Source: an uncultured Methanosarcinales archaeon (GTDB taxonomy: Archaea; Nanobdellota; Nanobdellia; Woesearchaeales; GW2011-AR9). From it: a DNA stretch of 64,000 nucleotides. The position numbers and the translations under genes were made by a program. Of the stretch, positions 43,467-47,102 are shown in pieces. The stretch covers positions 6,882 to 70,881 of the forward strand of contig CAYSWQ010000003.1 of assembly GCA_964434885.1 (NCBI GenBank). Direction: 5' to 3'. The notes below the pieces were generated by a model, which was not told where the DNA came from, made no database searches, and saw only the letters and a list, made by a program, of their open reading frames with translations. Numbering within the stretch: the stretch's first letter is position 1; every line of letters begins with the position of its first letter.

Positions 43467-43564
43467 TTTGATTCACCTCTTTTTGAATATCTTAATTAAA
43501 TTTTAAAAATATATAAATCTATCGTTAAGTTGAGAATAAAAAAGTTTGTTATGTTGGATATGAG

Positions 43565-43590
43565 ACCCCTTGATTTCCTATGGAGAAGGT
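43565..43590 (+). promoter_or_regulatory. ORB-like origin recognition box 1 (gaCCCcTTgATTTCCTATGGagaagg)
   Basis: Core TTCCTATGGA resembles the mini-ORB TTCCAGTGGAAA. G/C-rich in an AT-rich context. Confidence 0.5.
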
Positions 43591-43812
43591 GTTTTGATTT
43601 TGTTGTAGGTTTTGTTTTTGAATTAAATTAAGAAAGATTATTTTTTGAAATATAATAAATTAATTTTTAATTTAATAAATAAATATAAAATTGAAAAGGA
43701 TATTATATTTTGATGAACCAATAAAATTAAATTTTTTATTAAAAATAATTAATGATTTTATTTGATTTATTTTTCTTCATTTTTTTATTTTAATATAATA
43801 TAATATGTTTAT

Positions 43813-43847
43813 TATTATTATTATTATTATTATTATTATTTGCTATA
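43813..43847. repeat. (ATT)n microsatellite, about 11 units, inside the origin AT-rich region
   Basis: tttattattattattattattattattattatttgc. Confidence 0.8.
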
Positions 43848-44171
43848 TAGAAAATAAATAATAAATAAAATTGATTTTTGATTATATTAATTTATTTTAT
43901 ATTAAAGAAAGAAGAGAAAGAAAAGTAGTTTATTTAATTTTGAAAAGAATTTTTTTAATGAAAAAGATTAAATATTATTATTTGAAATTATTTTTCTTTT
44001 ATTATTTTTAATATGATTATATTTATTTTAATTTGTTTTTATATTATTAAAAAGAATATTATTTATTTTTGTTAATATTTTAATGTTGTTTTAGATTAAA
44101 TTTTGTTTTAGTTTATCTTAATTATTATTTTGTTTTTTATCTTTTTTTAGATAACCAATTAAATTTTAATG

Positions 44172-44189
44172 TTCCATAGGAAATAAAGG
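44172..44189 (-). promoter_or_regulatory. ORB-like box 2, inverted orientation (reverse complement CCTTTATTTCCTATGGAA)
   Basis: Forms an inverted pair with box 3, about 63 bp apart. Confidence 0.5.
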
Positions 44190-44252
44190 TGAGTCTGTAG
44201 GAGAAGAACAAAAATGTGTTTTTTGATATCTATTTTAGATAATTCTTATTTA

Positions 44253-44274
44253 GACCCTTATTTCCTATAGAAAA
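44253..44274 (+). promoter_or_regulatory. ORB-like box 3 (gaCCCTTATTTCCTATAGaaaa)
   Basis: Same orientation and near-identical sequence to box 1. About 90 bp upstream of the cdc6 ATG. Confidence 0.5.
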
Positions 44275-44362
44275 TATTATTTTACTTACTAAAGTAACAC
44301 CAAAAAGATTAAATAGTAGTTCCACAAGAAATGAAGGTGTATCTGTAATAAGATGAAGGTGA

Positions 44363-45565
44363 ATGATGAAAATAGGTAATTTTTTTGATAATTTTTTGAA
44401 AAAAGATTCAATTTTTTTAGATAAAACTATTTTACAATCTTCTTATTTACCAAATAATGTTTTGTATAGAGAAGAACAAATTATGGAAATTGCAAATGTT
44501 TTAGCTCCTGCTTTGAGATTAGAGAAACCTTCTAATTTATTTTTATTTGGAAAAACAGGAACTGGAAAAACATTAACAACAAAACATTTGTTGAATTCCA
44601 TGAAAGAAACTGCTAGAGCTAATAATATTCCTTTGAAAACCGTTTTCATAAATTGTAAGTTAAAAAGAGTAGCAGATACAGAATATAGATTGATTGCACA
44701 ATTAATTAGAGAATTTAAACAACAGGTTCCTCCAACAGGTTTACCCACAGATGAAGTATATAATATATTTTATGGATTATTAGATAGACAAAAACAAGTA
44801 GTAATTTTAGTTTTAGATGAAATAGATCAATTAACTAATAAAATAGGAGATGAAGTATTATATAATTTAACTCGGATTAATTCTGAATTAAAAAATGCAC
44901 AATTATGTTTAATTGGAATTTCAAATCGTTTAATTTTTTCTGACAATTTAGATCCTCGGATAAAAAGTTCATTAAGTCAGGAAGAAATAATTTTTCCTCC
45001 TTATAATGCTTTACAAATTCAAACAATTTTGAATGAGAGAGCAGTTAAAGCATTTAAAGAAGATATTATTGAAGCAGGAGTGGTTGAAAAATGTGCTGCA
45101 TATGCAGCTAGAGATCATGGTGATGCAAGAAGAGCAATTGATTTGTTAAGAATTGCAGGAGAATTAGCAGATAGGTCAGGTTCAGAAATAATTAAAATAA
45201 ATCATTTAGATGAAGCAGAGAAGAAAATTGAAAGAGATAGAATTATTAATTCAGTAGTTGGTCAACCAAAACAATTTCAAGGAGTTTTATACTCTGTTAT
45301 TTTAATTGCACAACAAAAGAATATTTTTTTTACAGGAGAAATTTATGATATTTACAAAAAAATATGTCAACAAGTTAGATTTAGTGTATTAACACAAAGA
45401 AGAGTAAGTGATATTGTGGCAGAATTAGATATGTTGGGATTAATTAATGCAAAAATTATTTCTAAAGGAAGATATGGAAGAACAAGAGAAATTTCTTTAG
45501 CAATTAGTGAAGATATTTTGATAAAATTAAGAGAATTGCTAGAAAAATCATTAGGTATTTCTTAA
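44363..45565 (+). CDS. cdc6: Cdc6/Orc1 origin recognition / replication initiator protein
   Basis: AAA+ Walker A LFGKTGTGKT. Walker B VLDEIDQL. C-terminal winged helix. 400 aa. Confidence 0.9.
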   Translation: MMKIGNFFDNFLKKDSIFLDKTILQSSYLPNNVLYREEQIMEIANVLAPALRLEKPSNLFLFGKTGTGKTLTTKHLLNSMKETARANNIPLKTVFINCKLKRVADTEYRLIAQLIREFKQQVPPTGLPTDEVYNIFYGLLDRQKQVVILVLDEIDQLTNKIGDEVLYNLTRINSELKNAQLCLIGISNRLIFSDNLDPRIKSSLSQEEIIFPPYNALQIQTILNERAVKAFKEDIIEAGVVEKCAAYAARDHGDARRAIDLLRIAGELADRSGSEIIKINHLDEAEKKIERDRIINSVVGQPKQFQGVLYSVILIAQQKNIFFTGEIYDIYKKICQQVRFSVLTQRRVSDIVAELDMLGLINAKIISKGRYGRTREISLAISEDILIKLRELLEKSLGIS

Positions 45566-45566
45566 G

Positions 45567-47102
45567 ATGGATCAAGTAGGTTTGATTAAACAAGGTTTTG
45601 AAAAGAAGGTTTTATTAAATAGAGAAATGTTAGATTCTCAATTATTTCAAAAAGATACTTTTTGGAATAATTTTAATGGAAAAGAATCTTTTTTGATATT
45701 AAATGAAGACAATTTTTATTTTTTGAAAAATTTTTCAAAAGAATCATCTTTTGAGTATGATAAATTGAGGGTTGATTTAGAAAAAAAAGATGAAATAGAA
45801 GAATATATTTCTTTTTTAAGAGGATTGAAAAAAGAACAACAAAGATTTCCTTTGGTTGTTGAAAATTCTTTTGAAAATATTCCTAAGAAATATGAGATAA
45901 GAGATTTTACTAAGTTTTTTGTTTCTCGATATAAATTTATGGAGAAATTATTACGACCACGACAAGAATTAAATGGAGTATTATCTATAAGTAAAATTGT
46001 TGCTAAAAAAGACAGAGAAAATGTTTCTTTAATTGGAGTAGTTGTAGATATTAGTCAAACAAGAAATAATAATTTTATTATTACTTTAGAAGATTTAACT
46101 GGTCAAGTTAAAATATTAATTAATCAAGATAAACAAGATTTATGCAATTTAGCAAAAACAATTGTAGTTGATGAAGTTTTAGGTGTAACAGGGATGTGGG
46201 GAGGAGAAATAATTTTTGCAGATAATTTGATTTGGCCAGATATTCCTTTAACCAATCCTTTGAAGAAATTTTCAGAAGATATTTATACTGTTTTTCTTTC
46301 TGATATTCATGTTGGAAGTACTAATTTTTTAGGGAAAGAATTTGGAAAATTTTTAGATTGGTTAAATGGAAAAATTGGTGATTCTAAACAACAAGAGTTA
46401 GCTAATAAAATTAAATATGTTTTTATTGTTGGAGATTTAGTAGATGGAATTGGTATTTATCCTGGACAAGATAAAGAATTAGATATTAAAGATATTTATG
46501 AACAGTATCAAGAAGCAGCTAGGTTGTTAGATAAGATACCTAAAACGGTACAAATTATAATTTGTCCGGGAAATCACGATGCGTTACATTTAGCTGAACC
46601 ACAACCTGCATTCAATCCAAAATATGTTCAACCCCTTATGGAAATATCTAATGTGATGTTGGTTTCAAATCCAGGAGTTGTGAATATTTGTGAAGGAAAT
46701 GGTTTTTCTGGTTTTAATGTTTTGTTGTACCATGGATATAGTTTTGATTATTATGTGGCTAATGTTGATTCAATTAGAAACCAAGGAGGATATAATCGGG
46801 CAGATTTGATTATGAAATTTTTGTTAAAACGTCGACATTTAGCACCTTCTTTTACTTCTACACCTTATTTACCTTTACATGCAGAAGACCCGTTATTGAT
46901 TAAGAGAATTCCAGATTTTTTTATTACAGGACATATTCATTATGCAATTGCAGCTAATTATCGAAATGTAACAATGATTAGTGGCTCTTGTTGGCAAAGT
47001 AAAACAGATTTTCAAGAAAAAGTTGGACACGAACCAGAACCAGCTAGAGTACCGATGGTGAATTTAAAGACGAGAGAGATAAAGATTGTGAAGTTTGAGT
47101 GA
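45567..47102 (+). CDS. DNA polymerase II (PolD) small subunit DP1 (calcineurin-like phosphoesterase, 3'-5' exonuclease)
   Basis: N-terminal OB region. Phosphoesterase motifs FLSDIHVGS, GDLVDG, GNHD, GHIH. Start 2 nt after the cdc6 stop. Confidence 0.85.
   Translation: MDQVGLIKQGFEKKVLLNREMLDSQLFQKDTFWNNFNGKESFLILNEDNFYFLKNFSKESSFEYDKLRVDLEKKDEIEEYISFLRGLKKEQQRFPLVVENSFENIPKKYEIRDFTKFFVSRYKFMEKLLRPRQELNGVLSISKIVAKKDRENVSLIGVVVDISQTRNNNFIITLEDLTGQVKILINQDKQDLCNLAKTIVVDEVLGVTGMWGGEIIFADNLIWPDIPLTNPLKKFSEDIYTVFLSDIHVGSTNFLGKEFGKFLDWLNGKIGDSKQQELANKIKYVFIVGDLVDGIGIYPGQDKELDIKDIYEQYQEAARLLDKIPKTVQIIICPGNHDALHLAEPQPAFNPKYVQPLMEISNVMLVSNPGVVNICEGNGFSGFNVLLYHGYSFDYYVANVDSIRNQGGYNRADLIMKFLLKRRHLAPSFTSTPYLPLHAEDPLLIKRIPDFFITGHIHYAIAANYRNVTMISGSCWQSKTDFQEKVGHEPEPARVPMVNLKTREIKIVKFE

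Follow-up and report, generated by a model that had tools for sequence, protein, structure and literature searches.

Is the long A/T-rich gap upstream of the cdc6 gene of an uncultured DPANN archaeon an origin of chromosomal replication and, if so, of which kind? The locus lies in a 64-kb stretch of contig CAYSWQ010000003.1 (hereafter the window; positions are counted from its first nucleotide). An earlier note on this DNA had described it as a textbook archaeal oriC, with origin recognition boxes (ORBs), an A/T-rich duplex unwinding element (DUE), and an ATT repeat directly upstream of cdc6 and the two genes of DNA polymerase D (PolD). Our full-text literature searching turned up no description of a replication origin from a DPANN archaeon. 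We conclude that the locus is quite probably a conserved Orc1-1-dependent chromosomal replicator of the oriC1 type, belonging to an archaeon of the Woesearchaeota/Nanoarchaeota group. The presence of an origin-type element is well supported. Its status as an active bidirectional origin is no more than putative, because the strand skew that should change sign at such an origin does not do so in the 84 kb examined. The oriC claim thus stands as far as the element is concerned, whereas the expected skew signature is absent.

Inverted origin recognition boxes bracket an A/T-rich region upstream of cdc6

The gap upstream of cdc6 reaches back to a small open reading frame (ORF) on the minus strand (43269-43466) and ends at the ATG at 44363. 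It measures 896 bp, rather than the 880 bp given previously, and is the longest non-coding stretch of the window, in which only eight gaps of at least 150 bp occur in 64 kb. The description of this DNA as almost pure A/T holds for positions 43600-44150 (9.4% GC) but not for the gap as a whole (15.7% GC). An ORF check of the gap returned only low-complexity frames of at most 46 aa, none of them plausible, and an Rfam scan of the window had a tRNA at 11960 as its sole match, with none in the A/T-rich stretch.

Using a 22-nt ORB matrix derived from 35 sites in related genomes only (consensus TTCCATAGGAAATAAAGGGGTG), we found four boxes in this gap, all of which score higher (16.7-35.0 bits) than the maximum of 13.9 bits reached over 50 shuffles of the whole window. 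The distal box, ORB-a (43564-43585, minus strand, CTCCATAGGAAATCAAGGGGTC; 35.0 bits), has an exact core and turns its dyad toward the A/T-rich region and its G-string outward. The inner right-hand box, ORB-b (44172-44193, plus strand, TTCCATAGGAAATAAAGGTGAG; 28.9 bits), is inverted with respect to ORB-a. It is followed by the weak box ORB-c (44251-44272, minus strand, TTCTATAGGAAATAAGGGTCTA), which at 16.7 bits barely passes the shuffle maximum, and by ORB-d (44320-44341, plus strand, TTCCACAAGAAATGAAGGTGTA; 28.5 bits), which has a putative TATA element on one side and the ribosome-binding site of cdc6 on the other.

The three boxes predicted by the earlier note were found where it had placed them and were recovered independently as inverted repeats, one pairing 43568-43584 with 44173-44189 (I19, ORB-a/ORB-b, 94% complementary) and the other 44157-44190 with 44254-44287 (I1, ORB-b/ORB-c). 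The fourth, ORB-d, came from a pattern search and shares the extended match GAAATnAAGGTGnnTCTGTA with the box at 44172. The proposed identity as mini-ORBs did not hold: read on the complementary strand, opposite to the earlier reading, the three boxes run TCCATAGGAAAT followed by (C/A)AAGG(GG/TG), which is the layout of a full ORB with a TCCAnnGGAAA dyad and a G-string (TCCATAGGAAATcAAGGGGT). The 12-mer TCCATAGGAAAT, allowing up to one mismatch, occurs three times in the 64 kb (0.8 expected), each time within the gap upstream of cdc6, and a dyad-only pattern search of this gap for additional mini-ORBs returned the four full boxes alone. The boxes align well to the published archaeal consensus CTTCCAGTGGAAACGAAAGGGGT and to that of the Methanomassiliicoccales, GTTCCAGTGGAAATGG-AGGGGTA (PMC4153887 Table 2), as well as to ORB1 of P. 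furiosus (TTCCAGTGGAAATGAAACTCTGGGGGG, the reverse complement of an oligonucleotide in PMC1904270), although the archaeal consensus has 1 nt more between dyad and G-string. A further ORB-like match inside dp1 (46769-46790, 15.7 bits) was rejected as a coding coincidence, since this stretch codes for DSIRNNGG, a conserved peptide, and varies freely at synonymous sites among 38 relatives.

The strong inverted boxes ORB-a and ORB-b, their G-strings pointing outward, bracket a spacer of 586 bp (43586-44171, 10.1% GC), the presumed DUE, in which T exceeds A and G exceeds C on the plus strand. The lowest-GC 500-bp segment of the window falls within it (43641-44140; 8.4% against 31% overall, the next lowest having 19.4%). 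So do the least stable 300 bp by nearest-neighbour energy (43784-44083), which lie about 5 standard deviations from the window mean. The combination of ORBs and an A/T-rich unwinding element upstream of cdc6 is therefore real, the element being a minimum of both GC content and stability. The sequence AACCAAT(A/T)AAAT, present at 43716 and 44153 and holding the sole CC dinucleotides of the spacer, was discarded as a candidate element, as it is not conserved in relatives.

The ATT/TTA microsatellite noticed earlier is located in this element at 43809-43840 (plus strand, 32 nt), where it abuts the central motif described below. It comprises exactly (ATT)10, or 10.7 copies at 100% identity according to Tandem Repeats Finder, rather than 11 units. 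The accompanying guess that it might be polymorphic was borne out by contigs of the same species, which were found by exact-protein look-up (a metagenome pattern scan yielded only relatives of at most 77% identity). Three independent assemblies (JGI 3300009008, ENA ERZ23498639, and JGI 3300007511) span the region and are 99.9% identical to the window over 4 kb, differing by one substitution and by one ATT unit (11 versus 10). Either the tract varies in length or short-read slippage affects it. Two other same-species contigs start within the repeat, and five or more stop in the left half of the A/T-rich DNA, so that at least seven independent metagenome assemblies break here (contigs L050, L051, and L054-L059); we ascribe this to the microsatellite, which is polymorphic, and to the extreme A/T content.

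The architecture recurs in related DPANN loci

Scans based on the Cdc6 protein retrieved 46 loci (L001-L046) with 50-77% protein identity to the window, from metagenome-assembled genomes labelled as Nanoarchaeota, Woesearchaeota, or Aenigmatarchaeota, and some automatically labelled "Methanosarcinales". The window is accordingly DNA of a DPANN archaeon. All loci that include at least approximately 700 bp upstream of cdc6 show a distal minus-strand ORB, an A/T-rich spacer, and a proximal plus-strand ORB. The minus-strand boxes are found at -200 to -1040 from cdc6 and the plus-strand boxes at -24 to -240, the latter being present in 42 of 44 related loci that were scanned, and the G-strings again point outward. 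Spacers between the boxes measure 66-991 bp, mostly 500-750 bp, and contain 9-27% GC irrespective of the GC content of the whole locus, which is 27-54%.

Nearly all relatives retain the order cdc6, DP1, DP2. In the closest ones (L001-L011, L020, and L024), a block of genes for TBP, MCM, an OB-fold protein, and a SpoIIM-like protein lies directly upstream of the origin. The window instead has this block inverted and downstream of DP2 (51929-56074), an order and a flanking gene adjacency that one relative, L016, shares. One inversion of a cassette comprising the origin, cdc6, DP1, and DP2 together with two or three small genes accounts for the interconversion of both gene orders.

A conserved quasi-palindrome lies midway between the boxes

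K-mer enrichment over 25 inter-ORB spacers (those of the window and 24 relatives) uncovered a lineage motif, TTTTC(T/A)ATAT(T/A)GAAAA; the K-mer CTATATTGA occurs in 16 of the 25 spacers, against 0.5 expected. When these loci were scanned with a matrix built without the window, the motif was the top match of the entire locus in 23 of the 25. Matches of at least 15 bits, our cut-off, number 22 inside 13.6 kb of spacer and only one in 298 kb outside. In most loci it occupies a relative position of 0.42-0.56 between the ORBs. The copy in the window (TTTGCTATATAGAAAA, 43839-43854, with the core CTATATAG at 43843-43850) scores 19.9 bits, above a shuffle maximum of 16.6, is the top match in the 64 kb, and lies at relative position 0.44.

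A/T trinucleotide repeats of at least four units are present within 70 nt of the motif in 13 of 21 loci; the ATT microsatellite is thus the window's version of a feature that recurs. The midpoint palindrome probably binds an accessory factor or marks the point where two helicases meet or separate. In relatives at 70% identity, an additional inverted pair, ATTGCATTTAAC, flanks the central palindrome approximately 150 bp inside each ORB (e.g., L005 5319-5965; spacers of L001-L041). It was considered as an element of the window too, but is absent there.

The adjacent genes encode an Orc1-1-type initiator and both PolD subunits

The gap is followed on the plus strand by the initiator gene orc1-1/cdc6 (44363-45565; Pfam AAA, Cdc6_lid, and Cdc6_C), whose start gene callers place at 44366, then by the genes of the PolD small subunit DP1 (45567-47102; DNA_pol_E_B and Metallophos) and the large subunit DP2 (47181-50732; N-terminal, central, and catalytic PolC_DP2 domains). 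Pfam thereby confirmed the gene order that had been claimed, although cdc6 and DP1 are separated by 1 nt instead of 2.

The best PDB matches of the initiator are Orc1-1 of S. solfataricus (2QBY_A, 1e-98) and ORC1 of A. pernix (2V1U, 2e-89), both crystallised on origin DNA, whereas Orc1-3 matches far more weakly (2e-42). The protein also contains the segments TQRRVSDI and GRYG(K/R)T(K/R)EI, matched in the alignment to the winged-helix region of the solved structures. Judged by sequence, the adjacent gene is an Orc1-1 orthologue, given its orthologue-level closeness to the Sulfolobus and Aeropyrum proteins and the much greater distance of Orc1-3.

A BRE (B recognition element)/TATA-like sequence, AAAAAGATTAAATAGTA, at 44302-44318 (plus strand) is the putative cdc6 promoter, a role suggested by where it lies, some 45 nt upstream of the ATG. 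It is one copy of a 17-nt direct repeat (D3, 94% identity), AAAAAGATTAAATA(T/G)TA, the other copy of which lies at 43961-43977 in the A/T-rich region and likewise points to cdc6; this second copy could be another promoter, with transcription crossing the right-hand half of the unwinding element. ORB-d, placed just behind the proximal copy, is a probable autoregulatory site of cdc6.

Resemblance to characterized archaeal origins

Inverted ORBs around a DUE are needed for origin function in Sulfolobus (PMC12141716) and Haloarcula (PMC3936714). As in the window, oriC1 of Sulfolobus/Saccharolobus and of Aeropyrum has inverted ORBs of the dyad and G-string type flanking an A/T-rich DUE beside an Orc1-1-type gene. 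Sulfolobus oriC1 also contains an element midway between its boxes, the ucm, an essential sequence between ORB2 and ORB3 to which UBP, a protein reported to be confined to Sulfolobales and Desulfurococcales, binds (PMC12141716). The likeness to our palindrome is one of position only: the 11-bp ucm sequence ATTATACAAAC was not encountered in the spacer, and the midpoint motif TTTTCNATATNGAAAA is unrelated to it in sequence.

The Pyrococcus/Thermococcales origin shares with the window the order oriC, cdc6, dp1, dp2 and inverted ORBs around A/T-rich DNA (PMC1904270). However, its ORBs are 34 bp long with a longer spacer before the G-string, and it contains several mini-ORBs of 13 bp as well as a second ORB cluster within dp1, neither of which we found here. 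The Pyrococcus parallel drawn earlier therefore extends to the gene order but not to a dp1 cluster or to extra mini-ORBs in the gap. The Pyrococcus origin was, moreover, identified by its skew, whereas the window shows no skew switch at the locus. Box length and spacing are the same as here in the predicted ORBs of the Methanomassiliicoccales, which are paired and inverted near orc1/cdc6.1 and also occur in isolation elsewhere in these genomes (PMC4153887), a parallel to the boxes upstream of TBP described below. These archaea belong to another lineage, though, and have spacers of 39-256 bp and no described central palindrome (PMC4153887).

Strand skew and other observations against an active bidirectional origin

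We measured skew as G versus C at four-fold degenerate codon sites (GC4 skew), with the plus strand as reference and genes split by orientation. Left of the locus, GC4 skew is +0.20 for plus-strand and +0.45 for minus-strand genes; the corresponding values to the right are +0.36 and +0.44. Counted by gene, an excess of G over C is seen in 29 of 33 to the left and in 10 of 12 to the right. Since the sign is the same for both gene orientations, the asymmetry belongs to the strand and not to the genes. Where a genome is strongly skewed, the skew is expected to change sign at a bidirectional origin, although skew is unreliable in many archaea.

Three observations weigh against the locus being an active origin of the familiar kind. 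One is that no sign change was found at the locus within the 84 kb examined. In the sequence as lengthened to 83.6 kb by contigs of the same species, the excess of G over C runs unbroken from 8 kb of the window to about 74 kb (the part beyond the window being in L060), at values of +0.2 to +0.6, and thus extends with the same sign at least 35 kb to the left and at least 30 kb to the right of the locus. This is the opposite of what a bidirectional origin predicts, yet it does not disprove an origin. The earlier note had fixed beforehand that a skew minimum located elsewhere, together with a missing read-depth peak, would speak against oriC; the skew half of this pair has come out against it, the origin-type sign change being absent across the 84 kb. 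The spacer, at 586 bp, is also 4-5 times the length of the 130-bp ORB3-DUE-ORB2 unit of Sulfolobus (PMC12141716). Finally, the excerpt of PMC5663688 describes some Thermococcales that retain a textbook oriC and Cdc6 and can nevertheless replicate without them.

The related loci L001-L046 are of little help, as their skew at third codon positions (GC3) is mostly near zero and hence uninformative as an arbiter. In L019, the one relative with a strong skew, no flip was seen within 6 kb to the left or right either. Skew near zero is also seen at the far left, unlike the rest of the window. This part is a mobile-element-like island (window positions 1-3879 and L062 12078-16589), which encodes a TrbC/type IV secretion system pilin-like protein, a TraC-like ATPase of 1036 aa, a resolvase, and a C5 DNA methylase.

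A second pair of boxes precedes the TBP gene

Pattern search revealed a satellite pair of ORBs (56216-56285) upstream of the TBP gene (55523-56074, minus strand). The box at 56216-56237 (minus strand, TTCCATCGGAAACAAGGGGGTG; 35.3 bits) and that at 56267-56285 (plus strand, TCTATGAGAAATTGGGGTT) are inverted and 29 bp apart, with their G-strings outward. Seven relatives have a single ORB approximately 15 nt 5' of a conserved TBP promoter box, ATTTATAAAGGnAATATTTAAATA, and in relatives TBP, MCM, and the OB-fold gene form one co-directional cluster. Because the TBP-upstream ORB is conserved despite the rearrangement described above, it goes together with TBP-MCM rather than with the A/T-rich DNA.

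By analogy, a regulatory or initiator-titrating role appears more likely for this site, and the satellite pair suggests that Orc1 controls, or is titrated at, the helicase operon. A possible model is the ORB-rich region downstream of oriC2-cdc6E in Haloarcula hispanica, a datA-like arrangement in which ORBs away from an unwinding element are proposed to bind the initiator without starting replication (PMC3936714). The TBP-upstream sites differ from it in having only one or two boxes, in being tied to a promoter, and in being kept with TBP-MCM across the rearrangement.

Weighing the alternatives

One alternative is an Orc1-binding replicator that persists by descent but is dormant or minor in this organism, most forks coming from elsewhere, whether another origin or recombination-dependent initiation. 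A strand asymmetry that crosses the locus independently of gene orientation would fit, as would the lack of a flip in the strongly skewed L019, and dormant origins and origin-independent replication in archaea are reported in excerpts of PMC4595724 and PMC5663688. We nevertheless regard this explanation as unlikely. The full architecture, including the 16-nt central motif, is under purifying selection down to relatives of 50-70% protein identity, nearly 900 bp of non-coding DNA are retained in a compact genome, and the 84 kb examined contain neither a second cdc6 nor a second A/T-rich ORB locus; skew, in turn, is weak or uninformative in most relatives. Of similarly low probability is the proposal that the replicator is not a symmetric bidirectional origin here, firing in one direction or being retained for some other Orc1-dependent role while forks arriving from elsewhere pass through it, and that TTTTCNATATNGAAAA may bind a still unknown DPANN origin factor resembling the UBP/ucm system. 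Such asymmetric firing or other Orc1 role would explain why the strand asymmetry runs through the locus unbroken and irrespective of gene orientation.

That the boxes are nothing but operators, through which Orc1 regulates cdc6-PolD and TBP-MCM, with the A/T-rich stretch being an outsized promoter or an untranslated region instead of a replication start, we consider very improbable. ORB-d does lie between the TATA-like element and the cdc6 start, and Orc1-2, a non-initiator Orc1 paralogue, is described as a transcriptional regulator in an excerpt of PMC9738581. The TBP-promoter ORB, by travelling with TBP-MCM, even provides an example of a purely regulatory ORB site in this genome, yet precisely that site has no long A/T-rich spacer. 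An operator would need neither a distal inverted ORB 600-800 bp away, nor a spacer of 10% GC, nor a midpoint palindrome, but all of these are conserved, and their geometry fits functionally dissected origins (PMC12141716, PMC3936714). Hardly credible, finally, is an origin of the A/T-rich stretch and its microsatellite as an assembly artefact or the degenerate remnant of a mobile element. The breaks of at least seven metagenome assemblies inside the region could be cited in its favour, but reproduction of the sequence at 99.9% identity in three independent assemblies indicates that the region is real, and the flanking gene adjacency is common to the window and L016. No terminal repeats or mobile-element genes flank the region, nor does it contain plausible ORFs or Rfam matches.

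We therefore retain the reading of the locus as a conserved Orc1-1-dependent replicator. The data show which sequence elements are present, how they are arranged and conserved, and what initiator the adjacent gene encodes; Orc1 binding, helicase loading, melting, and autoregulation, together with whether and how often the origin fires, are what we infer for it. Orc1-1 from the adjacent gene would bind the ORBs as monomers, placing its winged helix on the TCCAnnGGAAA dyad and its AAA+ domain on the G-string. The single strong box at 43564-43585 and the inverted three-box cluster at 44172-44341 would then hold the 10% GC region between them. ATP-bound Orc1 on these flanking boxes would recruit MCM, encoded 9 kb away, onto the easily melted DNA. 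The midpoint quasi-palindrome, flanked by slippage-prone A/T trinucleotide repeats, probably serves an accessory role, and the cdc6-proximal box, which overlaps the likely promoter/start region, probably mediates autoregulation.

Neighbouring genes and other features

The MCM helicase gene (53399-55420, minus strand; Pfam MCM domains are listed for the identical gene in L047) encodes the presumed client loaded at the origin. Further replication and repair genes cluster around the origin beside Cdc6, PolD, and MCM, encoding a Hef-like helicase/nuclease (4464-6713), RadA (13047-14168), an RPA-like protein (15178-16161), and Hjc (42144-42539). In a 117-bp gap 5' of an RNase Z-like gene, we also noted a perfect 41-nt tandem duplication at 41144-41226, with two copies of AGTGGCTTTGCACTTTAAACTTTCTTGATGGAAAGTAATAA, each containing the short inverted repeat CTTTC...GAAAG. 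The same-species loci have a gap of 117 bp as well.

Implications for replication in DPANN archaea

This kind of origin is well known; what gives the locus modest extra interest is its long spacer, together with the central motif and the uninterrupted skew. The study of ucm and UBP in Sulfolobus raised the question of "analogous factors in other lineages", for which the central motif offers a concrete candidate. If the proposal of a DPANN origin factor were true, the factor acting at the midpoint palindrome would play in DPANN archaea the part of UBP/ucm in Sulfolobus. Together, the window and about 25 relatives provide a template for the lineage, consisting of an ORB, approximately 300 bp of A/T-rich DNA, the central palindrome, another 300 bp or so of A/T-rich DNA, an ORB, and cdc6. 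The coexistence of such a textbook origin with an unbroken skew bears on whether genomes of this type start replication where their motifs say they do.

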